From NCBI GenBank assembly GCA_017428585.1, contig JAFRQN010000154.1, positions 1 through 46,559 of the forward strand: DNA of 46,559 nucleotides, given 5' to 3'. A program made the position numbers and the translations under genes. Of this stretch, positions 18,325 through 45,467 are shown piece by piece. The DNA is from Bacteroidota bacterium. Its GTDB lineage: Bacteria > Bacteroidota > Ignavibacteria > Kapaibacteriales > UBA2268. The stretch's first letter is position 1, and every line of letters begins with the position of its first letter. A model generated the notes under the pieces. It ran no database searches and had not been told where the DNA came from. It saw nothing but the letters and a program-made list of their open reading frames with translations.

Positions 18325-18326
18325 AT

Positions 18327-19271: not shown

Positions 19272-19283
19272 TAGGAGGCTGTC

Positions 19284-19550: not shown

Positions 19551-19551
19551 A

Positions 19552-19914: not shown

Positions 19915-20029
19915 GGTGCGTTTTGGATAAATACTTAATAAAATAATACCTATAAAATATAAAATTATATATTATAATTTGATTTAATTAAATAAAGGGG
20001 CGGGCGACCGCTCCTACAATATAAAGCTT

Positions 20030-20464: not shown

Positions 20465-20465
20465 T

Positions 20466-21244: not shown

Positions 21245-21245
21245 T

Positions 21246-21632: not shown

Positions 21633-21635
21633 GCA

Positions 21636-22268
21636 ATGAAAAAGGTTTTATTATTATTCTTGATTATTTCATATAGTTTATTTTGCAAAGAAAGTTATAC
21701 AATAATAGACAATAACAATGTTTCTTTGTTAGCTTTGGAAATTGCAAAAACACAAATTGGAGTAAAAGAAACAGCAGGTAAAAATAGAAGCTCACAAATA
21801 GATTTATACAATAAGACAGCAGGTGTGAGTTTAGGTTCACCTTATTGTGCAGCAGGCATTTATTGGAGCTTTAAGACAGCCGCAGATTCATTAAAAGTAA
21901 AGAATATAATAAAACAGACAGCGTCAGCCAATGGACAATATGATTATTGCAAAAGCAAAGGTACAAAAGACAGCATTTACAAAGCTAATAAATCAAGTTT
22001 AATAGTATGGAAATATTCTAATTCTTACAATGGACACATTGAAATAATAAACAAAGTATTAAACAATGGAAACGTGGAAACAATAGGTTTTAACACTTCT
22101 TCAGGCGCCAGTGGTTCTCAAAGGGACGGCGAGGGAGTATATAAAAGACAAAGAAACATAAAATATAAATTAGGAAAGATGTTAGTTAGAGGAGTAATAA
22201 ATTTTGAAAAAGAAAAGAATAATAACAATAATACTAATTATTATAAATGTACTTTGTATAAGTTGTAA
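21636..22268 (+). CDS. Endolysin, CHAP / NlpC-P60-like peptidase with N-terminal signal sequence
   Basis: GSPYCAAGIYWSF (catalytic Cys), NGHIEII (His) and GFNTSSG. Hydrophobic N-terminus MKKVLLLFLIISYSLFC. Confidence 0.65.
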   Translation: MKKVLLLFLIISYSLFCKESYTIIDNNNVSLLALEIAKTQIGVKETAGKNRSSQIDLYNKTAGVSLGSPYCAAGIYWSFKTAADSLKVKNIIKQTASANGQYDYCKSKGTKDSIYKANKSSLIVWKYSNSYNGHIEIINKVLNNGNVETIGFNTSSGASGSQRDGEGVYKRQRNIKYKLGKMLVRGVINFEKEKNNNNNTNYYKCTLYKL

Positions 22269-22629
22269 ATCTAATCAAGATATAATAAAAGATACTACAA
22301 TAAATATAAAAGATGTAGAAACTGATTACAAATTTCAAAATGTACCCAGTTTAGTTTATGACAACAACCTTAATTTGATTTATTTTGAGAATGATACAAT
22401 AATATATGTAGATAATACTAAACTACATATAAAACAAAAATACGATGTAAAAAAGAATTTACTAAATACTGATATACAAATAAAAAGACAAGATACTACT
22501 ACCATAATAAAAGAAACAAAGGAAATAAAAAAAGAAATAGAAAAAAAAGATTACTTTTTTTTAATTACAGCAGGTTTTTTATTAGGTATTTTAGGAACAA
22601 TATTTTTAATATATAAAATAAAGAAATAA
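22204..22629 (+). CDS. Unimolecular spanin candidate
   Basis: Lipoprotein-like signal (IIINVLCISC) plus a C-terminal TM helix (FFLITAGFLLGILGTIFLIY). Overlaps the endolysin 3' end. Confidence 0.5.
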   Translation: MKKKRIITIILIIINVLCISCKSNQDIIKDTTINIKDVETDYKFQNVPSLVYDNNLNLIYFENDTIIYVDNTKLHIKQKYDVKKNLLNTDIQIKRQDTTTIIKETKEIKKEIEKKDYFFLITAGFLLGILGTIFLIYKIKK

Positions 22630-22634
22630 AAAAT

Positions 22635-23351
22635 ATGTATTTGCAAAAGATAGGCAACAATAATCTAAAAACATACGAAGCATTTGGAAAATTAGAATTT
22701 GATGATTTAGGAACAGGTTTTATAAATGTAATGAATAGTTACAATGTATTAAATCTTGATACTAATTCGCAATATGCAGGGGACAACGTTTTACAATGGA
22801 TGGACGCATTAGCAAATACAAAGGTGCCGCAGGGCTCAGCTTCGCATCATCAATATGTTGCAGGTGATTACATAGTACAATGTGTAATAAATGTAAAAGA
22901 TAATACAAATAATACAATAATACATTATAACATAGACAAAGACCGTCTGCCAACAGGAAGAGATAGGTTAGAAATTGTATTTGATGATATAATACAAAGT
23001 GATGTTTCAGGTTTTACTAATAAGAATTTAGATTATGATAGCTACGTAACTATTTATAATCCAAGCAATATGAATATAAGAACATATTTTGGATATAGGA
23101 ATATATATTCTGCTTCTTTGGATGCTGATTACGCGCGGGATAAAAATCCAGCTTTTTATTTTCAAAGGGAGCATATATCATTATATCAAGGTACGGCTTT
23201 TGTTGGTATAAATGAAATGATGGTTTTACATATTAAATATAATGTATATAGTGGTTTGATGGTATTTATAGAAAATTATAAATATTCTGATTTTAGCTAT
23301 GATAATACTCAGGATACAAAAAACAATGCAAATATATTTAAATTCATTTAG
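22635..23351 (+). CDS. Hypothetical virion protein
   Basis: 238-aa ORF between the lysis and fibre genes. Confidence 0.45.
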   Translation: MYLQKIGNNNLKTYEAFGKLEFDDLGTGFINVMNSYNVLNLDTNSQYAGDNVLQWMDALANTKVPQGSASHHQYVAGDYIVQCVINVKDNTNNTIIHYNIDKDRLPTGRDRLEIVFDDIIQSDVSGFTNKNLDYDSYVTIYNPSNMNIRTYFGYRNIYSASLDADYARDKNPAFYFQREHISLYQGTAFVGINEMMVLHIKYNVYSGLMVFIENYKYSDFSYDNTQDTKNNANIFKFI

Positions 23352-23390
23352 GAAATAATTTTTTTAATCAATAAATAAAAGTAAACAATT

Positions 23391-24986
23391 ATGGCAGAAC
23401 GTTTAGATATAGTTTCACAAAGTAACTTTCCAACAAATAAAAGCAATACAGTTGAAATAGTTACTACAACAAAGAAAAAAGTAACAACGGCGTCAGCTTC
23501 CGATATTGCAACGTTAGTAACGCCAGCAATTAGCAATTTGGATATAGCAACACAAACAAACTTTCCAATCCAATCAAGCGACGCTCAGTCTGATTTTATA
23601 ATAACAACAGACGGCGGCGTAAACAATGTAACAGCGGAGGCGGCTGCAGGTTTGATTAGTTCATACATACCAACAGGCGGCGGCGACCCACATGAGCCAG
23701 AATTTACAGAAGATTACAGCACAAATTATAGTGATTTTTCAAATTTTACAGGGAGCGGAACAGAAGCAGACCCTTATCAAATTTGGAACGAAAAAATGTT
23801 TTTGAATGCACGTTTTAAGGTAAATAATGGTGGATTGTCTGATGCAACATATTTTAAACAGATGAGAGATATAGATTGGCATTTTGATGGTATAGGTTTT
23901 TGTATGACAGCAGGTACTTTTTATATTTATGATACAAACAACACAGATCTTCTTGATACTGCTTTTTATGGTTCGAGTACTGCGTTTCAATATTTTAATT
24001 ATGAAGGCGGTTTACATACATTAAATTTACATTTAGATGATTTTACATTTAATACTGATTTTGTAGCAAATTTAATTAATTTTACTGCGCCTCATGGAAA
24101 AATAACTACTTCTACTACATCTAATAGTTGTGCTATTCTCTTTTCTTTTATAGCTGCTAATATAATTAAAGATTTAACATTTTCTTTAAAAGGGAAATTT
24201 TATTCTTCTTTATCATATATATATTGGAAATTGTTAGAATTTAAGACAAAATTAGAAAATGTTACAATAAAAGACTCTCAAGTTATTGTTACTTCAAATA
24301 ATTCTAAATTTGAGCAGCTGATATTGAGTAATTATGCAACAGCCGAATTTAATAATATAAAGATTATAGATTGTAATGTAGTTGGTGGTAGTTCTACACC
24401 TTTAATTAATATTTCATGTGATACTAATAATTTATTAATTGAAAATTGTGATTTTTCAAATACTAGTAATCCTATATATAATTCTTATTATTCCAAAGAT
24501 ATTAATTATTTTCATATTAATAATTGTATAATTAAAGGTACGCCGAGTAATAGTACAGGATTGATTACTGGTGGTAAAATATATAATTGTTTAATAGAAA
24601 ATACTAAATTTTATAGTGGTTTGCCAAATTATGCTTTTATTTTAGTAAAAGCAGATTATATATATAATTCATGTTTAAAGAATTTATATATAGAAGGAAA
24701 ATCTTTTTATGGTTTCAGTGTAAATTATAAATTATATGGATGTTCATTTTTAGGTTCTATATGGTGCAAGCAATTAGACAACAGCGGCGAATTTTATCTT
24801 TGTAGATTTATTGGTTCGAGTGCTTTGCCAACGGGAGAACATGCAGTAAATTATTGTAAAAATTCGTGTGCTTTCTTTGTAGATAGTAATTCATATACAT
24901 ACGATTCATCTGTCCACGCTTACTTGGATCCAAATACTACTGGGAATAAAGCGGATGCTTCAGGCTTACAAATAGGAAATATGTAA
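23391..24986 (+). CDS. Tail fibre / receptor-binding protein with beta-helix-like repeats
   Basis: 531 aa. The C-terminal two-thirds has recurring N-C-x-[IF] / N-x-[ST] rungs (IDCNVVGG, ENCDFSNT, NNCIIKGT, YNCLIENT). Confidence 0.5.
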   Translation: MAERLDIVSQSNFPTNKSNTVEIVTTTKKKVTTASASDIATLVTPAISNLDIATQTNFPIQSSDAQSDFIITTDGGVNNVTAEAAAGLISSYIPTGGGDPHEPEFTEDYSTNYSDFSNFTGSGTEADPYQIWNEKMFLNARFKVNNGGLSDATYFKQMRDIDWHFDGIGFCMTAGTFYIYDTNNTDLLDTAFYGSSTAFQYFNYEGGLHTLNLHLDDFTFNTDFVANLINFTAPHGKITTSTTSNSCAILFSFIAANIIKDLTFSLKGKFYSSLSYIYWKLLEFKTKLENVTIKDSQVIVTSNNSKFEQLILSNYATAEFNNIKIIDCNVVGGSSTPLINISCDTNNLLIENCDFSNTSNPIYNSYYSKDINYFHINNCIIKGTPSNSTGLITGGKIYNCLIENTKFYSGLPNYAFILVKADYIYNSCLKNLYIEGKSFYGFSVNYKLYGCSFLGSIWCKQLDNSGEFYLCRFIGSSALPTGEHAVNYCKNSCAFFVDSNSYTYDSSVHAYLDPNTTGNKADASGLQIGNM

Positions 24987-25144
24987 TGATTAAAACTAAT
25001 TTACAAAAAGAATACAATAAATATCTTCAATCAAGATTAAATAAATGTATAGAAGATTACAATGAAAAGGTAGAAGCTAAGAAGTTATTATTAAAAGCAA
25101 TAGAAACATTAAACAATAATAAAAAAGTCAATGGAAAAAGATAA
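24986..25144 (+). CDS. Small hypothetical protein (52 aa)
   Basis: TAATG overlap with the fibre gene stop. Peptide MIKTNLQKEYNKYLQSRLNKC... Confidence 0.35.
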   Translation: MIKTNLQKEYNKYLQSRLNKCIEDYNEKVEAKKLLLKAIETLNNNKKVNGKR

Positions 25145-25325
25145 GTTTAATTTTGATACAAAGAAAAAAGAAGACGAAAAAGAAAAAGAAATAATTAAAA
25201 CTTTTAACATAAACATAAAAGATTTTATAAAATTCTTAAAAGAGAACAATATAAAATTTATTTATAAAAACGAAATGAAGGTGGAAGATTTACAAAGAAT
25301 ATTCAATGATTATCTAAAAGATTAA
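25131..25325 (+). CDS. Small K/E-rich hypothetical protein
   Basis: 64-aa ORF. Confidence 0.4.
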   Translation: MEKDKFNFDTKKKEDEKEKEIIKTFNINIKDFIKFLKENNIKFIYKNEMKVEDLQRIFNDYLKD

Positions 25326-25479
25326 AAATTTCGTTTATATTTTGTTTCTAAGACGTTTTTATTATTGACTTGATAAATTATACTAAAAAGAAATAAAAAT
25401 TTAATACTCACAAAATAAACATTAAAAAAAAATATATTTTTTTAACATTATATTAAAAATAAATAGGAGAAATTAAAAA

Positions 25480-26253
25480 ATGGCTAAGACAGTTAGTGCA
25501 ACATTAGGAAATGAAAGCGATACCACGTTATTGTGCGCCTATCCAGCGGTGGCAATGTGGAAAGTATCCAGCGGTTCTTTAGTTCCTTTATATAGTTTTT
25601 ATGATACAGGCGATACGACAACAACATGGGCGGCTGATCCATCCAGTACATCTGGTTCAGAAGCTACAAACTATGAAATAACAGCAGGAGACGGCACGGT
25701 GGTTCAGTTCCCAAAAAATACAAGACGCATCGATGGTACAGACGGCACTTTAGTTACTACAAGTTCAACAAGCGATGGTAACTTCTCAAACGTAGGTACA
25801 ATGCAATTTACAGCACAATTTGCGCCAAAAGCATACGGCGGATCAAGTTTCGCAAAACAGACATGGTCAAGTTTCATAAATCAATTAACACAAGGCACTA
25901 CGCCAGTTAGAGATATGGAATTATTGGTTGCAATGCCGACAGGTCAAACATACACTGATATAAACACAAATAATACTGGTACTGGTCAAGTTGATGGTTG
26001 GATTTTTATGTTTGGAAAAATTAATTCTGATATTACAGTTGCTGCAGGCAGTGCAAATCCAACAAATTTACAAATAACACTTGCTTCATACCGTCCGCAT
26101 GGTATAGATGCAGAAGATATAGGCGGGATGACTGCTATTGCTTTGTTAGTTCCAGATGGTACACAAACAGGCATCACCGTAACAACACCTTCTTTATCAA
26201 GTGATGATGCGGCAGTTCTTTTGGCAGGTAAAATTTTACTAAAAGCTAATTAA
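25480..26253 (+). CDS. Abundant virion structural protein, probably the major tail protein
   Basis: 257 aa, T/S/G/A-rich, AGGAG 10 nt upstream, with noticeably GC-richer codons than neighbouring genes. Confidence 0.45.
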   Translation: MAKTVSATLGNESDTTLLCAYPAVAMWKVSSGSLVPLYSFYDTGDTTTTWAADPSSTSGSEATNYEITAGDGTVVQFPKNTRRIDGTDGTLVTTSSTSDGNFSNVGTMQFTAQFAPKAYGGSSFAKQTWSSFINQLTQGTTPVRDMELLVAMPTGQTYTDINTNNTGTGQVDGWIFMFGKINSDITVAAGSANPTNLQITLASYRPHGIDAEDIGGMTAIALLVPDGTQTGITVTTPSLSSDDAAVLLAGKILLKAN

Positions 26254-26364
26254 TATATTGAATATCTTATAAAGTTGGTTTATTTAATTATTTAATATTA
26301 TTATTTGAGGGAATTATGAATAATTTGTAATTCCCTTTTTTTATAAAACTATTTATTTTTAATT

Positions 26365-29259
26365 ATGGATTTTATATTTCAAACATACAAAAGACAGGAG
26401 ACTAATTTTGGCAATAAGTATATTTGTTTTATTGTATCCAAAGATTTAAAACATTTATATGCGGGTGGCAATAACTACATACAAACAAATATATTTCAAT
26501 TATCATCTATAAAAAAAGATTTGGAAAACAGCAAAGGTGGTTTTGTTAGTGATTCTGTTTCTTTTTCGTGCATAGATTACGAAGATATGTACACATTAAG
26601 CAGCGGCAATTTAATTGCAAACAACGATGCTAAATGTATTCATTTTATACTACAAAATATAGAAAAGTGTTTTTGCAGTATATTCATGAGCAATGAAAAT
26701 TTTATAATTAATAATGGTATAAACTACAATGAGCTTATAGAAGATAATTTATTATATTTAGGCAAGTTAGACGCAAAAACAACAAGTACGGATTTGAAAT
26801 GGTTGTATAATGAATATTCAAGCGACCGCCGACCATCCAAAGAATATAAATTTAATAGTAAAAGTTTAGATGCCTCACTATTGGAGGATTGTTTATTCAA
26901 TGGCAGTATTCAAGATATACGCGGGTATGATATAAAAAACGTATATGAAAGATTTGTAGAAAGTGAAGACTCGGCAGGTAATGCGTATTCTATGTTTACT
27001 AATTATTGCAAATATAGATTGTTTCATTTGCAAAAAGGAAACGACCGAGTATTATATCCATCTTTTACGTATGGAATGATTAATTTATATGAATGTTTAA
27101 GAATATATTTAGAAACTTGTCAAGATTTAATAAATGAAAAGTATAATTTAACTGATGATGATTGTATAAGCATAGTTTTAGATAATACTACATATAATGA
27201 CACAAAATTAAAAGGTATAACGTGCAATTATAACGTAAAACATAAAGCAGGCACAAAAAACTATTTAAGGTGCGTGGACGCAATAGAAGCTACAAACAAA
27301 CAATATGAATTATATATTACAGATGATGCAACAATAGATATATTAAATGCGGGTCATACTATATCAAGTAGAAATTCTGCTGCAGCTTTGTATATCCATA
27401 GAGGTATGATTTCAGGCGAGTTGATGAATGAAATTTGGCTTGGCTACACTTCTACAGATGGAACATATAGAAAAACATTAAAAGAAATAAAATTATTATT
27501 AGAAACTAATTCAGAAACTTTAACTGATGATGATAAAAAAGCAATAGAAGATTATCAAAAGAAATTAAATTATTCTAATTATTCAGACAGCTTATCATTT
27601 GAAAAGTTATATAAAAATATGTTAGAATTATTGAATGCAGTTACACAAAGTTTAGGATTAAAACTAATAATAAAATTTACTGATCCTAATACAATTACAG
27701 TTTATCTAAAAAATAGAAGCCAGTTGTCAAGCAAGGCAATAAGTTTCAAGAGTTCTACAAGTTCAAATACAAATTATTCTTATAATTTAGGAAGTACTGA
27801 TTATAAACATTACACACAAACGACCGTTAATACTTTTGGTGGTTTTAACAATTTGCGCATTCAGCCAGACGCAGGCTACATTCCACAGGAAAAACTATAT
27901 ACGAATGAAACTGAGTATTTATTTTTTACAAACAAAGTTTTTGCAGACAGCAAAGTGATGTATGAAAAGTCGGACAGACTTCAAACAGACGAATTGATTA
28001 GGCAAATAGACAAAGACAAACGAAAAATAGAAGCAATTTATAATTGTTTCAGCGTTACGCATCCGCCTATGCTTACATACGATGAGAACTATTTTTCATT
28101 TAGGCGAAGCGTATTAAATGATAAGTCAGTATTTATTAATGTAACAGATAGTATTTCAAATAGTTTAACTGAGTATGCAGAAGATTATTATTATAATTTT
28201 CATTGGGGATTTTATCAATCAATAGATTTTGAAGGTTATATATTAGAGGGTTTGACTTGTGAATATTTGCTTACTAATCTATTTATAAGAGCGAAAGCGT
28301 CTTATTTTACTGATACTTACACTGATAATTACGGCGAGCTTATAGATGTAGAAAGCACCGACAAGGCAGGTTTGTATTTTACGCGCCCTTTGGTTGGAAT
28401 AAATGCAAATATCAATAATAATACTAAATGTTATACTACATTACATGATTATTTAAATGATATATACGCATTAGATGCTTCAACATATACAACCGAAATT
28501 GATTTAGATATTCCTTACTGGTCAGCTTTTAGACAGGTTCTAAGCAACACAAATATAGATGTTTTAGATATATCAATGTGTGATTTAATAACATTAAAAA
28601 ATTATACAATAGATGCTAATAATGTATTAGTATCAACAGATGCTACATATTGTATAACTTCTATTGAAATTGATTTAACAAGACCATACGTAAAAATGAA
28701 ATTACAGAACAATAGTAAATTAGGTATGTATGATGTTAGTTTAGAATATGAGCCTGTTATAATTGAAGATAATAACAATTTTGATGTATCAAATAAGAAT
28801 ATACAAGTATATGAGGCGGGTTCGCCAATCACGAAAGGTTATGCCGTGAGGTCATACATAGATAATAGGGACGTTTCAGTTGTAGAAATTGCAGAGTCTA
28901 TATTTGATGATTACAAAGTAAACAACATAATAGGAATTGCTTTAAACGATGCTTTAACTGGTGAGTTAGTAAACATTGCAACAGGCGGTGTGGTTAATGT
29001 TGATTTTGGAAATTCGCCATGCGAAATTGGAAAAGAATTATTTGTTAGATATGGTGCAGGCGGTGTTCTTCCTGCCGACCATACAGGCAATATTGGTTAT
29101 GCAAATAGTAAATTAAATATATCATATCAAGATATTATTACAGCAAAAGACAATAACAATTTGATACAAGACGAAAATTTATATGCTAAAATTGGTTTTG
29201 TAAAAAACAAAAATTCAATAGAAATTAATATATTAGAATACAAATACGAAGGAGAATAA
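26365..29259 (+). CDS. Large tail / baseplate-associated protein with a C-terminal DUF2190-like domain
   Basis: 964 aa. The last ~130 aa (YEAGSPITKGYAV...IGIALNDALTGELV...) align by eye with the 19552 decoration protein. Confidence 0.5.
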   Translation: MDFIFQTYKRQETNFGNKYICFIVSKDLKHLYAGGNNYIQTNIFQLSSIKKDLENSKGGFVSDSVSFSCIDYEDMYTLSSGNLIANNDAKCIHFILQNIEKCFCSIFMSNENFIINNGINYNELIEDNLLYLGKLDAKTTSTDLKWLYNEYSSDRRPSKEYKFNSKSLDASLLEDCLFNGSIQDIRGYDIKNVYERFVESEDSAGNAYSMFTNYCKYRLFHLQKGNDRVLYPSFTYGMINLYECLRIYLETCQDLINEKYNLTDDDCISIVLDNTTYNDTKLKGITCNYNVKHKAGTKNYLRCVDAIEATNKQYELYITDDATIDILNAGHTISSRNSAAALYIHRGMISGELMNEIWLGYTSTDGTYRKTLKEIKLLLETNSETLTDDDKKAIEDYQKKLNYSNYSDSLSFEKLYKNMLELLNAVTQSLGLKLIIKFTDPNTITVYLKNRSQLSSKAISFKSSTSSNTNYSYNLGSTDYKHYTQTTVNTFGGFNNLRIQPDAGYIPQEKLYTNETEYLFFTNKVFADSKVMYEKSDRLQTDELIRQIDKDKRKIEAIYNCFSVTHPPMLTYDENYFSFRRSVLNDKSVFINVTDSISNSLTEYAEDYYYNFHWGFYQSIDFEGYILEGLTCEYLLTNLFIRAKASYFTDTYTDNYGELIDVESTDKAGLYFTRPLVGINANINNNTKCYTTLHDYLNDIYALDASTYTTEIDLDIPYWSAFRQVLSNTNIDVLDISMCDLITLKNYTIDANNVLVSTDATYCITSIEIDLTRPYVKMKLQNNSKLGMYDVSLEYEPVIIEDNNNFDVSNKNIQVYEAGSPITKGYAVRSYIDNRDVSVVEIAESIFDDYKVNNIIGIALNDALTGELVNIATGGVVNVDFGNSPCEIGKELFVRYGAGGVLPADHTGNIGYANSKLNISYQDIITAKDNNNLIQDENLYAKIGFVKNKNSIEINILEYKYEGE

Positions 29260-29261
29260 AT

Positions 29262-29636
29262 ATGAATATCTATTTATCTACAAATGCAAACAATAGTTCG
29301 CCAGAATTATTTAAATGTTTAAGAAAATATACAAATGAAATAGAGTCTGCTTCAGATACGAGCACCTGCTTAGATGGTACAATAGTAAAACATATAAAGT
29401 ATTATCATAGAAAACACAATATAACTATTGGTGCAGATGTATTAAGCAATAATAGTAAACTTAATTACTTAAATAGTTTTTTGGTTTCGCCGATAAAAAA
29501 ATTATCTTTTGATGGTACAAATTATGTAAATGTGATTATGAATTCTGAAACATTAAATTTATCATACGTTGATAATTTAGATTTTTTAAGAGAAGCTACA
29601 ATTACATTTATAGAAACAAATGCGGGAGGAAATTAG
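29262..29636 (+). CDS. Hypothetical tail-module protein
   Basis: 124-aa ORF with GGAG upstream. Confidence 0.5.
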   Translation: MNIYLSTNANNSSPELFKCLRKYTNEIESASDTSTCLDGTIVKHIKYYHRKHNITIGADVLSNNSKLNYLNSFLVSPIKKLSFDGTNYVNVIMNSETLNLSYVDNLDFLREATITFIETNAGGN

Positions 29637-29637
29637 A

Positions 29638-30258
29638 ATGAGTTTAGTATTAGATAAAATAAAAGGCAGTATGCTTTTATTGCCTATAACGTCAGTTCGT
29701 TTTTATTCTGATCCAGTAATTTCAAATAACACAATAACAGGCTACACAAATGATTTAACTATTTTGTATCCAGAACAGGAGAGCAGTTATTTATTTACGA
29801 AATTAGGCAATAAAAACAGCAAAGGAACATACGTAAATTATGGTTGGAATTTTGAATTGATTGTTTACGTTCCTAATAACAATTTTTATAAAGATACAAC
29901 AGAAGCTCAATTAAATGGTTTAGGTTATGATATGTTATTAGAATTAAAAAAACTAATGAATTATGGTAGTTGTTTATTAGATTTAAGACTTGGCAATGTT
30001 CCTGATGGTTCTCAATCATTAGTTGATGAGACTTTGCCTATGGGCGACCAAGAAGCGCCAACAAATATAAACTTTTCATTGCTTAGAAAAATTATAATTA
30101 AAAATGGTTCTATTGGTTATGATGTAGAACATACTGAAATACGTCCGCGCACAAAAATAACATATAATGCTTTTATTACAGATTTAACTAATAGTAATGA
30201 AATAGAATACACAGGCACGAAATATGTAGACAATGAAGAGCCAGAAGAAACTACATAA
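29638..30258 (+). CDS. Hypothetical tail-module protein
   Basis: The track start is 29620. The ATG at 29638 (MSLVLDK) follows GGGAGG and lies 2 nt after the upstream stop. Confidence 0.5.
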   Translation: MSLVLDKIKGSMLLLPITSVRFYSDPVISNNTITGYTNDLTILYPEQESSYLFTKLGNKNSKGTYVNYGWNFELIVYVPNNNFYKDTTEAQLNGLGYDMLLELKKLMNYGSCLLDLRLGNVPDGSQSLVDETLPMGDQEAPTNINFSLLRKIIIKNGSIGYDVEHTEIRPRTKITYNAFITDLTNSNEIEYTGTKYVDNEEPEETT

Positions 30259-30494
30259 AAATACGTTTTATTTTTGATTTAAGAGCATTTTGTTATTTAT
30301 CTAATAAAATATATCAAAAAAGAATAAAAATTGAATGTATGCAAAATAAACAATAAATTTTTACGTTTTAGAATAATTGCAACAATAATAACAAAAATTT
30401 TTAATAAAATTAAAAAATAATTTTATTTTTAATTAAAAAATTGTTATTTTTGTATATAACTAATTAACAATTTTTATTAACTATACTAAAAAAT

Positions 30495-30517
30495 CCTGCC
30501 GCGTTTGGAGGGGTAGG
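30495..30517 (+). ncRNA. Conserved-loop hairpin HP1
   Basis: CCTGCC-GCGTTTGGAGG-GGTAGG. Confidence 0.6.
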
Positions 30518-30762
30518 CTGAATAAACATTTAATTTTAATAATCTGTTTTTTTTGATTTATATTTCATCAACATTGAATGCTTAGAATAAAATAGCTTAA
30601 ATTCTTTTTAGGTTATGAAAGTATTTTGAAGTAATATGAAAGATATTAGAAAAGACTAAGAGATGTTTATAAGGAAGATTTTTAATAACAATAGTAAATT
30701 AGTTGTGTGTGTGAAAATAGTCAGGCGCAGTGAGTATCTGCGCCTATTATTCCACAAAATAT

Positions 30763-30837
30763 CGCGGGGTGGTGTAATTGGTAAACACGCGAGGCTGTGT
30801 ACCTTGTTAGCTGGGAGTTCGAGTCTCCCCCCTGCTA
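30763..30837 (+). tRNA. tRNA-like gene 1, anticodon position GTG (His-like), atypical
   Basis: Hand-folded cloverleaf: D arm GTGT/ACAC with a GG loop, anticodon stem CGAGG/CCTTG with loop CTGTGTA, T arm GGAG-TTCGAGT-CTCCC. C1xT72 mismatch, T at position 37, no encoded CCA. Confidence 0.55.
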
Positions 30838-30873
30838 CGAATTTAATTAATGATTGTTTAATAAATATAAAAT

Positions 30874-30896
30874 CCTGCCGTGTGCGGAGGGGCAGG
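30874..30896 (+). ncRNA. Conserved-loop hairpin HP2
   Basis: CCTGCC-GTGTGCGGAGG-GGCAGG. Confidence 0.6.
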
Positions 30897-31038
30897 TGTA
30901 TTGAGTTATAATAACATTAATTATTTTTTTTAGACATAAATAATCAAATAATTCTTCAATTTAATATCATACTAATTTTAGTATGATATTTTTTTTATTC
31001 TGCAATAAGAATTATTTTGTAATTAATTAAAAAAGTAT

Positions 31039-31261
31039 TATTTTTGTATTGTCTTTAGACATTAGGTTTGATAGGTTTAATGTAACGACAACACAACATG
31101 ATAAGGAGAATGCTTAGGAGGGTCGGCGTTCTCCTTTATTTATTTATAACATAGCGGGGTGATGTAATTGGTAAACATAGCAGGGTGGTTGCTTGCTTAT
31201 TGTAGGTTCGAATCCTTCCTCCGCAACAAAAAATTTACTTTGTATTTTAATAAAAAAGAAT
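31039..31261 (+). ncRNA. Noncoding unit b carrying tRNA-like 2
   Basis: -7 box at 31039-31046, stem AAGGAGAA/TTCTCCTT at 31103-31136, then the tRNA-like gene. No hairpin terminator before the next promoter. Confidence 0.4.
31153..31226 (+). tRNA. tRNA-like gene 2, anticodon position GGT (Thr-like), atypical
   Basis: Same 5' half as gene 1 (GCGGGGTGnTGTAATTGGTAAACA). Anticodon stem GCAGG/CTTGC with loop GTGGTTG, T loop TTCGAAT. A1xA72 mismatch, one T-stem mismatch, T at position 37. Confidence 0.5.
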
Positions 31262-31425
31262 TAATTTTGTAGTATAATTAAATTATGTTTAACTAATTAA
31301 AATCGCGCCGTGTTTGGAGGGGCGCGTGGTTTGGTTTGACATACTATCTACCTATAAAAATTTATTATAAAATTAACTTTTTGTTTTAATTAAATATCAT
31401 ACTATTCCAGTATGATATTTTTTTA
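31262..31425 (+). ncRNA. Noncoding unit c with hairpin HP3
   Basis: -7 box at 31262-31269, GTTTAACTAATTAA box, HP3, and terminator at 31394-31425. Confidence 0.55.
31304..31326 (+). ncRNA. Conserved-loop hairpin HP3
   Basis: CGCGCC-GTGTTTGGAGG-GGCGCG. Confidence 0.6.
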
Positions 31426-31466
31426 TTATAGAATAAGAATTATTTTGTAATTAATTAAAAATGTAT

Positions 31467-31643
31467 TATTTTTGTATTACAATTAATTTAATATGTTTAA
31501 CTAACTAAATTCGTACCGTGTTTGGAGGGGTACGTGTGTTGGTGTTTGGATAAACATAACTACCTGTTAATATTATTTAGTTTTATTAAATTAGAATTTT
31601 CTTGAATTTCCTTAAGATGGATAAATAATTTATCCATCTTTTT
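31467..31643 (+). ncRNA. Noncoding unit d with hairpin HP4
   Basis: -7 box at 31467-31474, GTTTAACTAACTAA box, HP4, and terminator at 31615-31643. Confidence 0.55.
31512..31534 (+). ncRNA. Conserved-loop hairpin HP4
   Basis: CGTACC-GTGTTTGGAGG-GGTACG. Confidence 0.6.
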
Positions 31644-31797
31644 ATATTAGAATTCCCAAAACAAAAGGTGCAGGTGGTTGCTCTTCTGCATCTATAAAAT
31701 ATAATTTTTCATATTTATAATAAAATTAAATTATTAAAAATAGTATTAGACTTATTTTTATTCTTTAGCAATAGATTAAAATTCTATTGCTTTTTTT
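31644..31797 (+). ncRNA. Noncoding segment e with an anticodon-arm-like hairpin
   Basis: TGCAG-GTGGTTGCTCTT-CTGCA at ~31670-31691, and terminator AGCAATAGA/TCTATTGCT+T6 at 31767-31797. No canonical promoter seen. Confidence 0.3.
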
Positions 31798-31822
31798 ATT
31801 TTGTTATTGATTAAAAATATAT

Positions 31823-32023
31823 TATTTTTGTATATAAATTTTTTCGTAATTAACAATTTTTTTAACTATTAATTTCCTTGTAATAGGGACTTCTTACAGA
31901 AGAGTTATACGTAGAAAAAGAATATAACTAATGGTAGAATTAAAGTGTTAAAGAAAAATTTTGTAATGTAGTAAAAAAAAGAAAAAAGGGATGTTAGAGA
32001 GGTTTTATGCCTCTCTTTTTTTT
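31823..32023 (+). ncRNA. Noncoding unit f
   Basis: -7 box at 31823-31830 and terminator AGAGAGG/CCTCTCT+T7 at 31996-32023. Only ORFs of 6 codons or fewer. Confidence 0.45.
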
Positions 32024-32066
32024 CTAAAAATTTACAAAAAAATTTTATTTTTAATTAAAAAATTAT

Positions 32067-32478
32067 TATTTTTGTAATATATTTGATTTTCAAATTGACT
32101 GATTCATAAGAGGTGGTTGTTACAGCTCGCCGCCTCTTATACTGGCAATAATTATTATTTATTGTATAGATTATAACTTAAAAATTGCGTTCCTTTTTTA
32201 TTTAAGTTATCATTGTTTACAGCTCACTTTATGAAATTTTTTGGCTGGTTCATGTGTGAGTTAATGAAAAAGAAAAAGAGACAAGTTTTTTTTGTGTTTC
32301 CTCTTATTTAGCTTGTCTCTTATCTTTTAACTAAGACAGCAATATTTTTTTAATTCTTATATAATCTTTAAATAATTTTTTCATATACTTTTAACATTAT
32401 TTGTTTATAAAAATTTATTTTTTGATATACTTTTGATTTTTTCATGGATAACAGAACCTATTTAGGTTCTGTTTTTTT
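32067..32478 (+). ncRNA. Noncoding unit g (or micropeptide unit)
   Basis: -7 box at 32067-32074, 11-bp stem at 32106-32140, 10-bp stem at 32276-32321, terminator at 32451-32478. Contains a 26-codon ORF at 32231-32311. Confidence 0.4.
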
Positions 32479-32523
32479 ATGCAATAAGAATAAAAATTAT
32501 TTTGTTTTTAATTAAAATTTTTG

Positions 32524-32776
32524 TATTTTTGTATTACAATTAATTAACATTTTTTTTTACAAATAATTTTTTATATTTCTATTAAATCTATACATAAATA
32601 TATTTTAATATGTTATTTGATATCCTGCTTTATCTATTACTCAGTGCCAATTAAATAAGTTTATCATAATAGAAAAGCAAAAAATGTTATTAAATGTAGT
32701 TAATATATATAAAATCATCCAGAATAATAATGAGCAACAGAATTATTAAAAAAATTTAATAATTCTGTTTTTTTAT
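32524..32776 (+). ncRNA. Noncoding unit h
   Basis: -7 box at 32524-32531 and a 12-bp-stem terminator at 32736-32776. Only ORFs of 14-21 codons. Confidence 0.4.
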
Positions 32777-32791
32777 TTGCTCCAGAATTTA

Positions 32792-32901
32792 TATTTTTGT
32801 ACAATAATTAACTATTTATTCAAAATTTCAATAAAATGGTTTAATTTTTGATTCAGTATTATTTATATATCTTCAAGCAGGATGCCTCTCCTGCTTTTTT
32901 T
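32792..32901 (+). ncRNA. Noncoding unit i (~95 nt)
   Basis: -7 box at 32792-32799 and terminator AGCAGGA/TCCTGCT+T6 at 32876-32901. The only ATG opens a 2-codon ORF. Confidence 0.5.
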
Positions 32902-32935
32902 ATATAAAAAGTTTTGTTATTTGAAATAAAATTAT

Positions 32936-33094
32936 TATTTTTGTATATAATTATTTTTGTTTAACTAATTAAATAATAATTGCTTATCAATTTTATTTAT
33001 TTAACTCTCAAATTATATAAAGACTTAAACATAAATAATTGCAAGTGTTCGGCTAATTGGAAATTTAGGGAAGCAAAAACTTCCCTTTTTTTTT
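32936..33094 (+). ncRNA. Noncoding unit j (~140 nt)
   Basis: Tandem -7 boxes at 32936-32943 and 32952-32959, GTTTAACTAATTAA box, terminator GGGAAG/CTTCCC+T9 at 33068-33094. No ATG in the unit. Confidence 0.5.
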
Positions 33095-33114
33095 GATATT
33101 TATTAAAAATTTAT

Positions 33115-33193
33115 TATTTTTGTTTACAAGATATAGATTCATTGAAGTAAAAAGGAAAATTTGAAGCAATAATTTTATATTATTGCTTTTTTT
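33115..33193 (+). ncRNA. Noncoding unit k (~65 nt)
   Basis: -7 box at 33115-33122 and terminator AGCAATAAT/ATTATTGCT+T6 at 33165-33193. No ATG. Confidence 0.5.
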
Positions 33194-33218
33194 ATTTGTA
33201 AATAATCCAGGAAATATA

Positions 33219-33301
33219 TATTTTTGTACTGCCTTTATAAAAATATAAATTTTAATAGCTCTGATAAGATGGGACGGTATGCCTAACCGTCCCAATTTTT
33301 T
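33219..33301 (+). ncRNA. Noncoding unit l (~70 nt)
   Basis: -7 box at 33219-33226 and hairpin GGGACGG/CCGTCCC followed by AATTTTTT at 33271-33301. Confidence 0.45.
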
Positions 33302-33316
33302 AAAATTTTCGGCTTC

Positions 33317-33625
33317 CCAAGACCGAGACTGGTTCGCGGCACTCGTGGAAACCATCAGTCGTATGCATCCGATACGAGACTACTTAAAAGCGCCGGGTCT
33401 ATACCTTCTGCATTACACGTCTATACTCGATACTACTAAAAAACATCGAATTTTTTGGGTCTCCAAGACCGAGACCGGTTCGCGGCGAGCGCGGTTTCAT
33501 CCCCCTTCTCATCCGAGACTCGGTGTTACCCGAGACTTCTTAAAAGCGCGGTTCTTGACTTCCTGCAATACTAAGATTTACTGGATACTACTAAAAAGCA
33601 TCGAAAAAATGCCAAAAAATCCGAA
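33317..33625. repeat. GC-rich island A: two tandem ~150-bp repeat units plus a partial third
   Basis: CCAAGACCGAGACyGGTTCGCGGC at 33317 and 33463. GAGACTwCTTAAAAGC at 33376, 33532 and 33703. GATACTACTAAAAArCATCGAA at 33429 and 33584. Confidence 0.7.
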
Positions 33626-33640
33626 AAAATGGGTCAAAAA
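33604..33640. other. Four helically phased A-tracts (predicted intrinsic DNA bend)
   Basis: A6 at 33604, 33614 and 33624, and A5 at 33636, giving a 10-12 bp period. Confidence 0.6.
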
Positions 33641-33650
33641 TTGTGGTTGT

Positions 33651-33670
33651 CCCCCCCCCGCACCCCCCCC
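33651..33670. repeat. Paired homopolymers C9-GCA-C8
   Basis: CCCCCCCCCGCACCCCCCCC. Slippage-prone, with G-quadruplex / i-motif potential. Confidence 0.7.
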
Positions 33671-33785
33671 AAGTTTTTTCAAAAAAAGTCCCGCTGTTGC
33701 CCGAGACTTCTTAAAAGCAGTATTTCTATACTCTCTGCGAAACTATACTTAAAAATAAGACTTTGCTATACTTAAAGAATATACC

Positions 33786-33814
33786 AAAAAAAAAGCACGC
33801 TCAATGCGTGCTTT
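33786..33814 (-). terminator. Terminator of cysteine-ladder gene 3
   Basis: AAAGCACGC-tcaat-GCGTGCTTT with a T-run on the minus strand. Confidence 0.7.
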
Positions 33815-33830
33815 GACCAAAGAAAAAATA

Positions 33831-34376
33831 CTACAAATATTTGTAAACTAATCTGCGTTTAATTAATTTAGAATCATACAGGTTGATTTTTCTTGCTCTG
33901 TTATAATTTAGCAGGCTGTCAATATAAGCGTTGCTGCACATTTCGGCGTTATTGCAGAAATTGCAGTTATTACAGCAGTAACAATTAGTGCAGGCTTCGC
34001 ATTTATAGGACATTTCGCAATTAAGGCAATGTTCGCATTTGATGCAGTTATAAATATTTACGCAGTCGTAATTGCCGTAAGATTTAGAGGCGTTGTTGCA
34101 TTTTATGCAATCTATGCAATTAATACAGGACATACAGGACGCACAGCATTCACAATAGGAGCATTTGACGCAGTCTGTGCAGTTTTTACAATTATAACAA
34201 TTAAAGCAATGAAAATTATTTTGATTTAGGTTTTCGTATTCTTCAAGGGTTAAATTTGCCCAATTTAGGAAATCTTGCGTTACGCCGTTTATTATATATT
34301 TCCAGTTCCATTTTTTATATTCTTTAAATTCGTTATAATCTTTAAATAATAGAGTTTTGATTTTATATTTTAACAT
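33831..34376 (-). CDS. Cysteine-ladder (C-x2-C)n repeat protein, paralog 3
   Basis: 181 aa. Motif INGVTQDFL...LEEY, then 27 Cys. Leader is ATAGGAATTAAAAATT-ATG. Confidence 0.8.
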   Translation of the reverse strand: MLKYKIKTLLFKDYNEFKEYKKWNWKYIINGVTQDFLNWANLTLEEYENLNQNNFHCFNCYNCKNCTDCVKCSYCECCASCMSCINCIDCIKCNNASKSYGNYDCVNIYNCIKCEHCLNCEMSYKCEACTNCYCCNNCNFCNNAEMCSNAYIDSLLNYNRARKINLYDSKLIKRRLVYKYL

Positions 34377-34399: not shown

Positions 34400-34435
34400 T
34401 AATAAAAGATACAGGAGAGGCTAATCCTCTCCTGT
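34400..34435 (-). terminator. Hairpin overlapping the stop of cysteine-ladder gene 4
   Basis: ACAGGAGAGG-ctaat-CCTCTCCTGT, followed on the minus strand by a T-rich stretch. Confidence 0.5.
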
Positions 34436-34918
34436 TAATATATAATGGTATAAATCGACCATTTTATTTTTTAATTTAATATTAGAAATTTCGTTTCCAT
34501 ATTTTACATTTGTGCAATTTTTGCTTTTGCGGAGCGTTTCGCATTTTTCGCATTTTGTGCAGTCGTCGCAGTCTTCACAATCGGTGCAAAAACTCGCTCT
34601 TTTACAATAGAAGCATCTAATATCAAAGAAGCAGTAATGACAACCTATGCAGTCATCGCAATCTTGGCAATTAAAGCAATTATGGCAAGATTGGCAATTT
34701 ATGCAATCTTCGCAACCCATGCAGTTCCAGCAATAGTAGTTTGTTTCGTTGAACTTTTGGTAAAGTTCGAAAGAGAGGAGATAATTTTTTAAGAAAAGCT
34801 CGGAGCATCCGTTTATTTTTTCGTTCGGATGATATTCAAGGTAATTTTGAAAATCCTCATAGCTTTCAAAAATTTTAGTTAAAAATTTTTGTTCAGAATT
34901 GTTTTGTTTTTTCAGCAT
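34421..34918 (-). CDS. Cysteine-ladder (C-x2-C)n repeat protein, paralog 4
   Basis: The track ORF begins at a TTG inside the promoter. The ATG at 34918 (MLKKQNN) follows ATAGGAATTAAAATT. Motif INGCSELFL, then 22 Cys. Confidence 0.75.
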   Translation of the reverse strand: MLKKQNNSEQKFLTKIFESYEDFQNYLEYHPNEKINGCSELFLKNYLLSFELYQKFNETNYYCWNCMGCEDCINCQSCHNCFNCQDCDDCIGCHYCFFDIRCFYCKRASFCTDCEDCDDCTKCEKCETLRKSKNCTNVKYGNEISNIKLKNKMVDLYHYILTGED

Positions 34919-34959
34919 AATTTTAATTCCTATAAAATTTGATTTTCGAAAAAGAGTTG

Positions 34960-34980
34960 TATTTTTGTAATACAAAAATA
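34960..34980. promoter_or_regulatory. Palindromic bidirectional promoter (TATTTTTGTAATACAAAAATA)
   Basis: Plus-strand box at 34960-34967 and minus-strand box at 34973-34980. Confidence 0.55.
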
Positions 34981-35142: not shown

Positions 35143-35400
35143 ATGAAACGCAAGAACAGATATTCAAAAGTTACAAACGCAATGATTCTCGAAGAGCTAA
35201 GGAAAATCCGCCAATGCCGCAACGCGGAGGAATACATCGCATTAAAAAAAGCGGAGCGAAGAGCAAGGCGGATTAAAATTGCGAAAAAGATATTTTTCGG
35301 AATTTTAAAAGCTCCGTTTGTCCTCGCCGAGCTCTATTTAGTTTTATTTGATTTTTCAGATTTGCGCAGCAGAGGCGGACGCCCAGAGAGGCGGTACTAA
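35143..35400 (+). CDS. Small basic protein with a C-terminal hydrophobic helix
   Basis: Internal ATG of track ORF 34939..35400. Peptide MKRKNRYSKV...IFFGILKAPFVLAELYLVLF. The 3' end runs into GC island C. Confidence 0.4.
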   Translation: MKRKNRYSKVTNAMILEELRKIRQCRNAEEYIALKKAERRARRIKIAKKIFFGILKAPFVLAELYLVLFDFSDLRSRGGRPERRY

Positions 35401-35590
35401 ACAGGAGCAGGAAGCAAGGGAGCAGGGACGGCGGGAGCCGCCAAGAGGAGCGGACGCCCAAAGGGGCGCCACCCAGCCACCCTTCTTACAAACCTAAAAA
35501 AAAGAGCAGGAAGAAAAAGGAGACAAGGCGTTCCGCCCAAAGAGACTAAAAAAAATAAAAAAAAATCTTGCATAATTCAAAAAAAAGTAT

Positions 35591-39699: not shown

Positions 39700-40028
39700 A
39701 AGACTTCCTGTAACTTTTCAAAATTTTAACTACAAAAGTTCGAAAGTATACATAAATCCCCTCATTCCATGCACTTTTTTTACGATGCGAGCCAATACGC
39801 CGCAAAGCGAACCCCTTTAACCTTCTTGTTTTGTTAGAGTTACGTTTTCGCTTTTTTTGACCGCTTTTTTCATTGAGGCGGGAGCGGGCGGGAGCGGACT
39901 GCTTTGGACAAGGAGCAGGACGCCCGCACGACTGCCGCCGATATGAGGGCGGGAACAAATTTAGTGCAGTTCACGAGAGCGGATGGGAAAGAAGCAAGTT
40001 GAAGGTAGTATCTGCACGCCGCCAGGAA

Positions 40029-40062: not shown

Positions 40063-40149
40063 ATGCAGAGCTTGATGACAAAGGGTGGGGAACCAAAAAC
40101 ACAATACAAATAAAATAAAAAGATGTTTGTTTTTTTCGAAAAAAAGTAT

Positions 40150-40157
40150 TATTTTTG
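40150..40157 (+). promoter_or_regulatory. -7 promoter box preceded by a T7-CG-A7 palindrome
   Basis: TTTTTTTCGAAAAAAAGTATTATTTTTGTAATAT. Fires into GC-rich island B2. Confidence 0.6.
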
Positions 40158-40164
40158 TAATATA

Positions 40165-40849
40165 AAAATAAGCGACTGGGAGCGCGGCGCGGCGGCAGGC
40201 TTTTCCTCCAAGCCGAACGACACGACGACGCTCCCAGAAGCCAAAAAGCACGAGATTTTGTCCAATCCTTCCCTTCGATACTTTACACTCTCACAGGGTT
40301 GGAATACTTCGATACTAAGTCTCGGGCAACAGCGGGAAGCGGGGTGGGACAAGGTAAACTAAAGCGAGGCGGTCCCTGCACCGCCGAGCGGACTCCCTGT
40401 TCGTTTGGAAGTAAAATGTTTGGGAAATAGAGTAGGCGGGCTGCCGCACGCCTGCAAGAGTACGCATTCAGGGCAACGTGTTTATAAACGCATCGGTCTG
40501 ATGCGTTGCGTGTAGGCGGGCGAAGGGCACGCCTGCGAACAAAGGGGCGTCCTCTTGGGGGTGGGACTGAGAAACTTCAAGGCTTCGCCCCAGACGATGG
40601 CAATCGTCAAAGGACTTGCTTCAATCCGATACTTTTACAAAGCACTTGGATTTTGCACGATTCACACACTTAAGCGCAAGCAGGCGAGAAATTGAGTTAA
40701 TTCGATAGTTGATAGATAATTTGCCGTCCGCCGGGAGCAGGGTCATTGGGAAACCCAGCGACCAGCGGCGGCGGCTAAGCGAACGAGCGAAACGAATGTG
40801 GAGCGAGTGAGCGACAGCAATCATTTTTATTTTTTTACAGGATTTAATT
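40165..40849 (+). ncRNA. GC-rich structured RNA / ~680-nt leader upstream of the hsdMS operon
   Basis: No credible ORF. Stems: 40176-84/40229-37, 40368-85, 40432-55, 40488-506, 40512-36, 40544-49/40586-91, 40593-608, 40728-70. Confidence 0.45.
40737..40770 (+). repeat. 34-nt direct repeat, copy 2
   Basis: Identical to copy 1 except for one base (T to C). Outer stem here is CCGCCG/CGGCGG. Confidence 0.7.
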
Positions 40850-44768: not shown

Positions 44769-44976
44769 ATGTCAAGAATGTAAAGTTACATTTGAAGATT
44801 ATAATGAGTTAAAAAAAAACTTTTCATTAACAGACTGCTATATGTGTAAATTAGCATTTTTTACGTGTTATCCTTTTAATTTAGCAGTTTCACGTTATAA
44901 AGAAGAATATAAATTAGAAGTATTAAATAAAATTTTTACAGTATATAAGAAAGTTAAAGGGAGAATTAAAGAATGA
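44758..44976 (+). CDS. Small zinc-ribbon protein, paralog Z4
   Basis: Likely start is MMNKCQEC (track start 44737). CQEC-x19-CYMCKLAFF. Confidence 0.5.
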   Translation: MMNKCQECKVTFEDYNELKKNFSLTDCYMCKLAFFTCYPFNLAVSRYKEEYKLEVLNKIFTVYKKVKGRIKE

Positions 44977-45467
44977 GAACAAAAGTTTTCAATAATTTAG
45001 AGGATTATAAGACATACGTCAAATTAAATCCAGGTACTCTTATAAATGGAGTAACACAAGAATTTTTAGATGATTTTTATGAGTCATCATTAGAGGATTG
45101 CAATTCTGACAATGCAACAAATGAATTATGTTTTAATTGTTATAATTGCAAAGAATGCCATAGATGTATGGAGATGTGGTGTTCTAAATGTTGCAATAAT
45201 TGTTCAGAGTGTACAAATTGTAAAAATTGCAATGACTGCTATGATTGCAGTGAATGCATAGGCTGTTCGTATTGCTGTGAATGTGTAAAGTGTGAGAATT
45301 GCAGCAAATCATTTGAATGTGAGAGTTGTTATTTATGTAAAGGAATTTCAAACTCAAGCAATAGAGCATTTATTAAACATATAGTATTAGATAAAGATGT
45401 AATAGTATTTAATAGTTTATTTAATTTTGTAGAAAATTATAAATGCTATTTATCTGATGTTTTATGA
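44973..45467 (+). CDS. Cysteine-ladder (C-x2-C)n repeat protein, paralog 5
   Basis: 164 aa. Motif INGVTQEFL, then 26 Cys. GGGAG upstream. ATGA overlaps with both neighbouring genes. Confidence 0.8.
   Translation: MRTKVFNNLEDYKTYVKLNPGTLINGVTQEFLDDFYESSLEDCNSDNATNELCFNCYNCKECHRCMEMWCSKCCNNCSECTNCKNCNDCYDCSECIGCSYCCECVKCENCSKSFECESCYLCKGISNSSNRAFIKHIVLDKDVIVFNSLFNFVENYKCYLSDVL

Follow-up and report, generated by a model that had tools for sequence, protein, structure and literature searches.

Island A, a GC-rich array of tandem repeats, occupies positions 33296-33790 (495 bp) of contig JAFRQN010000154.1. The window, by which we mean the whole stretch of 46,559 nucleotides that was analysed, holds the essentially complete genome (~46.6 kb, GC 29.1%) of a tailed phage. 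The tandem array is real, non-coding and lineage-restricted; its short motif is strongly oriented, its copy number varies through recombination, and its GC content is maintained. It was found in independent assemblies from several samples and sources, and is therefore not an assembly artefact. The reading that we favour is that island A may be a cis-acting, one-directional array of short protein-binding sites; it is a tentative one, with a probability of about 40%.

Anatomy of the island A array

The GC content over 33305-33720 is 47.4%, against 29.1% in the genome (standard deviation 6.0 in 416-bp windows), that is, 3 standard deviations above the mean. This agrees with the original prediction, made from the sequence alone, of a GC-rich island in an AT-rich genome. 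The level is matched in the genome by only two other islands, C and B (see later section), and it is reached in a step, from 23% in the upstream non-coding region to 47% in island A. The island fills the entire gap between two convergent intrinsic terminators. The left one (33271-33301, + strand) ends the last unit of a small-RNA cluster and consists of a GGGACGG/CCGTCCC hairpin followed by T6. It is kept in all lineages, and the array begins right after its T-run in every allele. The right one (33785-33810, - strand) belongs to a convergent operon of Cys-rich proteins and has a GCACGC/GCGTGC hairpin with U9 on the - strand. It is invariant in relatives.

Three tandem units on the + strand make up the array. 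U1 (33303-33448; 146 bp, 46.6% GC) carries box 1 (33317-33340), an a-box (33376-33391), a b-box (33429-33450) and six copies of the hexamer CKAKAC. The corresponding boxes of U2 (33449-33603; 155 bp, 49% GC) lie at 33463-33486, 33532-33547 and 33584-33605, and CCGAGAC occurs twice in this unit, at 33513 and 33530, 17 bp apart. In U3 (33604-33790; 187 bp, 37% GC) the 5′ half is replaced by four to five phased A-tracts (~33593-33645; period 10-12 bp) and then by C9-GCA-C8 (33651-33670); after these come a segment common with island B (33689-33709), the a-box at 33703-33718 and a tail in which the subrepeat CTATACT occurs three times (33726, 33743 and 33766). Box 1 is CCAAGACCGAGACYGGTTCGCGGC, with 23 of 24 bases identical between the copies at 33317 and 33463. 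The a-box, GAGACTWCTTAAAAGC, is present at 33376, 33532 and 33703, and the b-box, GATACTACTAAAAAR or GATACTACTAAAAARCATCGAA, at 33429 and 33584. All the repeat blocks that had been listed in the original prediction were recovered at the same positions. Its description of two units and a partial third stands for the first two units but not for the third, which is full, diverged and extends to 33790; a unit-based profile picks up the 3′ half of U3 (E = 1e-6).

Overall, U1 and U2 are 74% identical, and 64% identical in the 5′ half. Between the near-intact boxes the spacers of the two units are unalignable; unrelated sequences, of which there are at least three variants, have taken their place. 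The merged 16-nt pattern GAKACTWCTWAAAARC has six matches where 1.2 are expected; five of the matches are exact, and all five lie in island A.

The hexamer CKAKAC, usually followed by T, is present 13 times on the + strand of island A, between 33324 and 33772, and not once on the - strand. In 1000 shuffles, the mean number of copies was 0.6 and the maximum 5. The 46.5-kb window has 31 copies on the + strand, 13 of them in island A, and no second cluster. The form CGAGAC is enriched 62-fold. Spacings between the sites are mostly 17-24 or 42-52 bp, and the well-conserved core is just 6-7 bp long. Each of the alleles described in the next section retains 5-9 CKAKAC sites on the same strand, and the strand bias is kept in all alleles.

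The poly-C tracts of U3 (33651-33670) are length-variable across lineages (C9/C8, C8/C9, C8/C8 and C9/C6), and at least one assembly (L011) breaks exactly there. The variation could be either real slippage or a sequencing problem. The - strand of the same tracts is a potential G-quadruplex.

Other known types of element were considered for island A and rejected. A clustered regularly interspaced short palindromic repeat (CRISPR) array, or a phage mimic of such repeats, does not agree with a 32-nt repeat family that is just 63-88% identical and has spacings of 53, 103, 52 and 119. For the template/variable pair of a diversity-generating retroelement, a reverse transcriptase is missing, and indels distinguish the units. 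Degenerate tRNA genes were discarded as ARAGORN and a tRNA model detect only two tRNAs. An attP site is ruled out by the absence of an integrase from the window, none being found among the window proteins scanned.

Alleles and substitution spectrum in relatives

Relatives were retrieved via the neighbouring proteins and are 90-99% identical in the flanks. Six alleles, of 179, 202, 324, 347, 350 and 495 bp, were observed between the two invariant terminators. The 495-bp allele, present in the window, L024 and L032, has U1, U2 and U3. One hybrid unit followed by U3 is found in the alleles of 350 bp (L020, L026 and L030) and 347 bp (L027). The 324-bp allele (L029) has a U1-type unit and a U2/U3 fusion, and carries neither A-tracts nor poly-C. 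The two shortest are the 202-bp allele (L007-L009), which is U3 alone, and the 179-bp allele (L025, L028 and L031), a U1/U3 fusion. In the hybrid unit of L020, the 5′ half is 89% identical to U1 (64% to U2) and the 3′ part 91% identical to U2 (78% to U1). In L029_Ub, a 5′ half that is 74% identical to U2, against 63% to U1, is joined to a U3 tail at 91%. In L025, a U1 5′ half (92%) is joined to a U3 tail (86%).

To judge from their sequences, the three fusion alleles are window-type arrays after a single unequal crossover between units, and the 202-bp allele is such an array that has lost 293 bp at a TAAAA microhomology. The losses relative to the three-unit array are 145, 171, 316 and 293 bp, and the indel junctions fall within homologous boxes. 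As the fusion and deletion alleles derive from a window-type array, the three-unit state looks ancestral, and the units predate the lineage splits. The original prediction had looked to absence or lack of conservation in close relatives as a sign of inert DNA. Two of the three units can indeed be missing or fused in relatives, but ~100 bp (~33690-33790), which comprise the unit middle, the a-box and the tail with its three CTATACT, are present in all six alleles and are the only universal part. The A-tract module is absent from two alleles. Between lineages, U3 is 90-95% identical, compared with 86-88% at third codon positions and ~95% at first and second positions. Assemblies break in or beside the GC-rich islands.

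Substitutions in the six lineages were polarised by majority and classed by the gain or loss of strong (S, G/C) and weak (W, A/T) bases. In the flanks, S>W changes amount to 0.148 per site and W>S changes to 0.059 per site, giving an equilibrium GC of 0.29, the same as that of the genome. Island A has 20 S>W changes (14 without the mosaic unit) and 28 W>S changes (22), with an equilibrium GC of 0.51-0.53 (p = 9e-4 / 1.7e-3 against the flank rates). Against the same rates, island B, with 35 changes in each direction, has an equilibrium GC of 0.50 (p = 1e-4), and island C, with 10 S>W and 8 W>S changes, one of 0.54 (p = 0.024). From a substitution spectrum near a 51% GC equilibrium it follows that the GC-richness of island A is maintained, via selection or a local GC-biased process, and is not that of a fading import.

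The phage genome and its other GC-rich islands

The proteins encoded in the window include a tape-measure protein, a portal protein, a large terminase and a major head protein, and also an ERF recombinase, an SSB and a VRR-NUC nuclease. Two orphan methyltransferase systems are encoded as well. The box TATTATTTTTGTA has 18 copies in the genome, against 1.6 expected, and fits TAnnTTTG, which we take to be the Bacteroidota -7 promoter consensus; this promoter box suggests a host among the Bacteroidota. The same genome was recovered from several samples and sources in contigs of 44.6-47.6 kb that all start at different positions. Since contig starts differ between samples and the window has no terminal repeat, the assemblies are circularly permuted, on which ground a cos-end reading was rejected; no fixed genome ends are visible among the contigs from different samples. 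Literature searches returned no published description of this phage group. The 13-kb structural-gene stretch (17000-30000) gave no megablast match against 50,697 phage records, and no relatives were retrieved from IMG/VR via the Cys-rich neighbour protein or a 964-aa protein. A near-complete relative, L028 (GCA_017475185.1, JAFVGB010000001.1, 47,491 bp), is contig 1 of a GenBank metagenome-assembled genome, and the taxonomy of this bin may give a clue to the host. Many related contigs are present in public assemblies.

The small-RNA cluster that ends at the left terminator extends over 30400-33300 and has about 12 units, each with the promoter box TATTATTTTTGTA, a short transcript and a terminator; tRNA-His (30763) and tRNA-Thr (31153) are included. 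A hairpin with the conserved loop GTGTTTGGAGG occurs four times in the cluster, at 30487, 30866, 31296 and 31504. The stems of the four copies differ by compensatory changes (CCTGCC/GGCAGG, GCGCC/GGCGC and GTACC/GGTAC), and the repeated hairpin looks like a small-RNA family. Five paralogous proteins (40-489, 4740-5252, 33831-34376, 34421-34975 and 44973-45467) share a conserved N-terminal domain, behind which CxxC repeats are densely packed. Their sole match is PHROG 15341, of unknown function, and two of the five flank island A. A word-index homologue search with one Cys-rich protein gave no match and did not return the protein's own sequence either.

Sharing of short motifs between island A and islands C and B, as originally proposed, is borne out in part. 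A 21-nt exact match to 33689-33709 is present, as an inverted copy of the unit middle, in island B (40317-40337, - strand). On the other hand GGAGCGGAC, AGGAGCAGGA and GGACGCCC, common to islands C and B in the same orientation, are absent from island A. The A/B match is 24 nt long in L029 and is 14 nt or interrupted in other lineages. CCCGCTG is found in both U3 and island B of the window and CCTGCTG in both in two other lineages, while the remaining changes are not shared. The unit profile is not significant on island B (E = 2.6). On these comparisons, the A/B match is read as a probable old inverted paralogous fragment and not as a maintained antisense pair.

Island C (35360-35545) and the first half of island B (39880-39925) each lie just upstream of a TTTTCGAAAAAAAGTATTATTTTTGTAAT-class promoter. 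The second half of island B (40163-40837) forms a 675-nt GC-rich untranslated leader behind a promoter at 40147-40159, with a 49-aa open reading frame (ORF) and the orphan hsdM/hsdS genes downstream. The leader folds better than shuffled sequence (z = -3.3, 20 shuffles). Its structure conservation index is 0.73 on both strands, a value that is non-discriminating at 93% identity. A 35-nt hairpin element is repeated in island B, at 40028 and 40736. Like island A, islands B and C carry indels between relatives, and L027 is without the segments of island B that correspond to window 40177-40233 and 40606-40811.

Candidate functions and alternative explanations

If island A is an array of protein-binding sites, the putative sites would be the CKAKAC(T) cores, often extended to GAKACTWCTWAAAARC, in three tandem units of ~150-185 bp, and the array would be placed in a transcription-free gap between the convergent terminators. 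A DNA-binding protein of the phage or the host may coat the array cooperatively, in the way that initiators coat iterons, partition proteins coat centromere repeats and the small terminase coats pac boxes. Given several equivalent sites, unequal homologous recombination, probably via the phage ERF recombinase, would change the number of units without loss of function; copy number could drift because several sites would do the same job. Iteron and centromere arrays such as F sopC and P4 crr typically vary in copy number above a functional minimum. The features that suggest this mechanism are the one-strand motif cluster, which is unique in the genome and whose five exact 16-nt boxes occur nowhere else; the boxes, which appear to have outlasted the spacers between the old paralogues U1 and U2; the promoter-free gap; the A-tracts with a 10-bp period beside the sites in the window-type allele; and a GC content held near 51%. 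We infer both the binding of a protein to the CKAKAC sites and the process that the array serves. As a first guess, an auxiliary replication or maintenance site is ranked ahead of packaging, and by analogy a site of the P4 crr or sopC type is possible.

The closest likeness is to P4 crr, which has two ~120-bp direct repeats with three octamer iterons each, lies several kb from ori and functions with one repeat. Iteron arrays are also known from the lambda ori, P1 oriR/incA and plasmid oriV. Like them, island A is non-coding, has short motifs in one orientation within ~150-bp direct repeats and a redundant copy number, is accompanied by bent A-tract DNA in some alleles, and has a related motif copy 6.6 kb off in island B. 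Unlike them, it is GC-rich and lacks an unwinding element or DnaA box, its core is 6-7 bp with weak flanks, and no Rep-type initiator is recognised nearby. Partition centromeres include F sopC, with 12 repeats of 43 bp, one of which is sufficient, R1 parC, and P1 parS, with hexamer and heptamer boxes around an IHF bend. Island A shares with them the tandem direct repeats, the unique location in the genome, variable and redundant copies and a bend in some alleles; yet no ParA, ParM, TubZ or ParB was found in any ORF scanned, and a plasmid-prophage lifestyle is suggested by nothing beyond the missing integrase. Terminase sites are represented by the seven TGATCA/G hexamers of P1 pac, the SPP1 pacL boxes with their A-tract bend, and lambda cosB. 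Clustered, oriented motifs beside bent DNA, unique in the genome, are in keeping with such a site, and circularly permuted contigs are the expectation for headful packaging. In contrast to these sites, island A is 17 kb from the terminase genes, and its A-tracts are absent from two alleles.

Several observations weigh against a protein-binding role. No candidate for the binding protein emerged. No Rep, Par or terminase-small family was detected in the neighbouring ORFs with Pfam, PHROG and NCBIfam; NCBIfam and PHROGs gave only an endolysin and one family of unknown function among the neighbours. A sequence search of the PDB with the 491-aa and 232-aa ORFs gave no match, and a single-sequence AlphaFold model of the 232-aa ORF was unusable (predicted local distance difference test score 37). 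A region at 620-1035 appears more canonical as a candidate origin than island A. It has adjacent DnaA boxes (624-632 and 636-644), then ~330 bp of TA-rich tandem repeats (660-1000), and ends with an alternating purine-pyrimidine GC cluster (~1000-1035); it adjoins the SSB, VRR-NUC and ERF genes. Perfect DnaA boxes are present at 636 and 1592 and none in or beside island A. The large terminase gene is at 14869-16290, which is the basis of the 17-kb distance. Within the array itself, changes have accumulated at about twice the flank rate (0.21 against 0.12 changes per site). The motif columns vary as much as the others among orthologous units (20% against 17%, p = 0.49), a comparison of low power; with equally low power, of the four changes that fall in the KAKAC core two exchange G and T and preserve the motif. 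For each of box 1, the b-box, the A-tracts and poly-C there is at least one allele without it, and the universal ~100 bp is no proof of function because crossover cannot remove the last unit. With an origin-like region elsewhere, the terminase 17 kb off and no Rep, Par or small-terminase family nearby, a role of island A as the primary origin or pac is not supported. Of the three options first proposed, protein-binding repeats agree best with the data; a specific role in replication or packaging is unsupported.

Some of these observations would also be accounted for by dispensable, recombination-prone repeat DNA (a minisatellite or selfish spacer), in which the oriented motifs are a legacy of tandem duplication, units are lost by crossover and GC is kept by recombination-associated bias and not by function. 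Among the six alleles, at 90-99% genome identity, each shorter one is one crossover or microhomology-deletion step from the three-unit array, and nothing is universal beyond the ~100 bp of the irremovable last unit. The absence of extra constraint on motif columns, the twofold rate, the phage-encoded ERF recombinase, the breaks of assemblies at or near the islands, and the indels and GC-maintaining spectrum that islands B and C share with island A point the same way. However, U1 and U2, at 64-79% identity, retain boxes of 16-24 nt amid unalignable spacers, unlike the product of simple decay or of long-tract conversion; an array of several units has been kept since well before the lineages separated, the genome has no other hexamer cluster, and we know of no proof of GC-biased conversion in phages. 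We regard dispensable repeat DNA as the main rival, though as a somewhat unlikely explanation. A broader proposal, to which we give little credence, takes islands A, B and C as one linked system held at ~50% GC in a phage of 29%. Island A would then be a second iteron-type cis site together with island B (P4 ori/crr-like, or an antisense pair with the B leader RNA), or the islands would be recombination hot spots kept GC-rich by biased gene conversion.

The remaining explanations concern RNA, protein and foreign DNA. Island A adjoins the 3-kb tRNA/small-RNA cluster, and like GOLLD, ROOL and the T4 stable RNAs it is GC-rich non-coding sequence in such a position. It differs from them in that covariance models do not match it, a promoter and a terminator of its own are lacking, and no secondary structure is conserved. 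At the gathering threshold, Rfam 15 detects only the two tRNAs, with nothing in island A at E up to 5. The units fold no better than shuffled sequence on both strands (z from +0.09 to -1.86), and on both strands the consensus fold of seven unit variants reaches only -8.6 kcal/mol, the covariation term being positive and the structure conservation indices 0.26 (+) and 0.21 (-). No TAnnTTTG or TATTATTTTTGTA promoter box is found inside island A on either strand, and both flanking terminators point inward. The middle of U2 forms a small hairpin that the other unit variants do not preserve, which rules out a conserved unit-middle hairpin. The structured RNA of the original prediction is thus not supported. 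Island A could still act as an unstructured read-through transcript whose linear motifs titrate an RNA-binding protein, or as a + strand transcript pairing with the island B leader. The perfect complementarity of 21 nt (24 nt in L029) to a promoter-driven RNA that is itself more stable than shuffled, the one C/T change common to U3 and island B across lineages, and the G-rich - strand of island A, with its more stable fold than the + strand, would agree with this. The reduction of the complementarity to 14 nt or its interruption in other lineages, the weak folds, and the lack of promoter, Rfam match and covariation make action as RNA improbable. A protein product is exceedingly unlikely, even though an uninterrupted 157-aa ORF (33279-33752) spans island A and is predicted by some gene callers. 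As had been noted from the sequence, U1 and U2 are read in different frames. The start codon lies within the terminator loop, allele lengths differ mostly by non-multiples of three and break the frame, and gene calls in other alleles are truncated or in another frame (P0007, 39 aa; P0008, 65 aa). Among 1.84 billion representative proteins, the ORF had five matches, namely its own sequence, the two truncated products of other alleles, and two weak ones to repeats elsewhere that are unrelated and spuriously translated. It has no family match, and Pfam gave none for any island ORF. The simplest account of the ORF is that it results from GC-rich sequence devoid of AT-rich stop codons: since all three stop codons are AT-rich, long chance ORFs would be expected in GC-rich DNA. 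Conservation at the nucleotide and not the protein level, as first described, is therefore upheld, and the conserved protein frame in relatives that would have spoken otherwise was not found. Recent acquisition of foreign DNA, also put forward originally, is very improbable on present data; such DNA would have come from the host or another mobile element, would owe its GC to its source and would now be decaying. The abrupt step in GC, the absence or shortening of island A in relatives and the TAAAA microhomology at an indel junction are what it would predict. Donors were sought by BLAST, with both islands A and B as queries in 50,697 phage records and island A alone in 72,556 plasmids, and by two motif scans of 185,579 species genomes, all without a match; exact-motif scans of IMG/VR gave only chance matches with no flanking similarity, and a Joint Genome Institute metagenome scan gave one chance match. 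The spectrum of island A is at a ~51% GC equilibrium beside AT-biased flanks (p about 1e-3), the divergence of the units is much older than the lineage splits, the shorter alleles arose by deletion and are not empty sites, and neither terminal inverted repeats nor convincing target duplications are present. The mobile GC clusters of AT-rich yeast mitochondria are comparable in being GC-rich modules in AT-rich non-coding DNA, with presence/absence polymorphism and modules common to several islands. Island A, by contrast, shows neither clusters of inverted repeats or hairpins nor a target-site signature, and its polymorphism is explained by unequal crossover within the array and not by insertion. 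A mobile GC cluster or miniature inverted-repeat transposable element was rejected, as there is a single 21-nt inverted fragment (in island B), with no convincing terminal repeats and no copies in the collections scanned.

The substitution result matters whatever the function of island A, as three non-coding islands stand near a 50% GC equilibrium in a genome of 29%. If the islands were hot spots with GC-biased conversion, they would be direct evidence for such a process shaping a phage genome. Island A is a lineage-restricted repeat array, and its wider importance is limited. As a protein-binding site, it would mark an unrecognised cis function (the control of replication, maintenance or packaging) in a group of uncultured phages with promoters of Bacteroidota appearance and with replication proteins that all lack annotation, and the array would be a handle for finding the protein that binds it.

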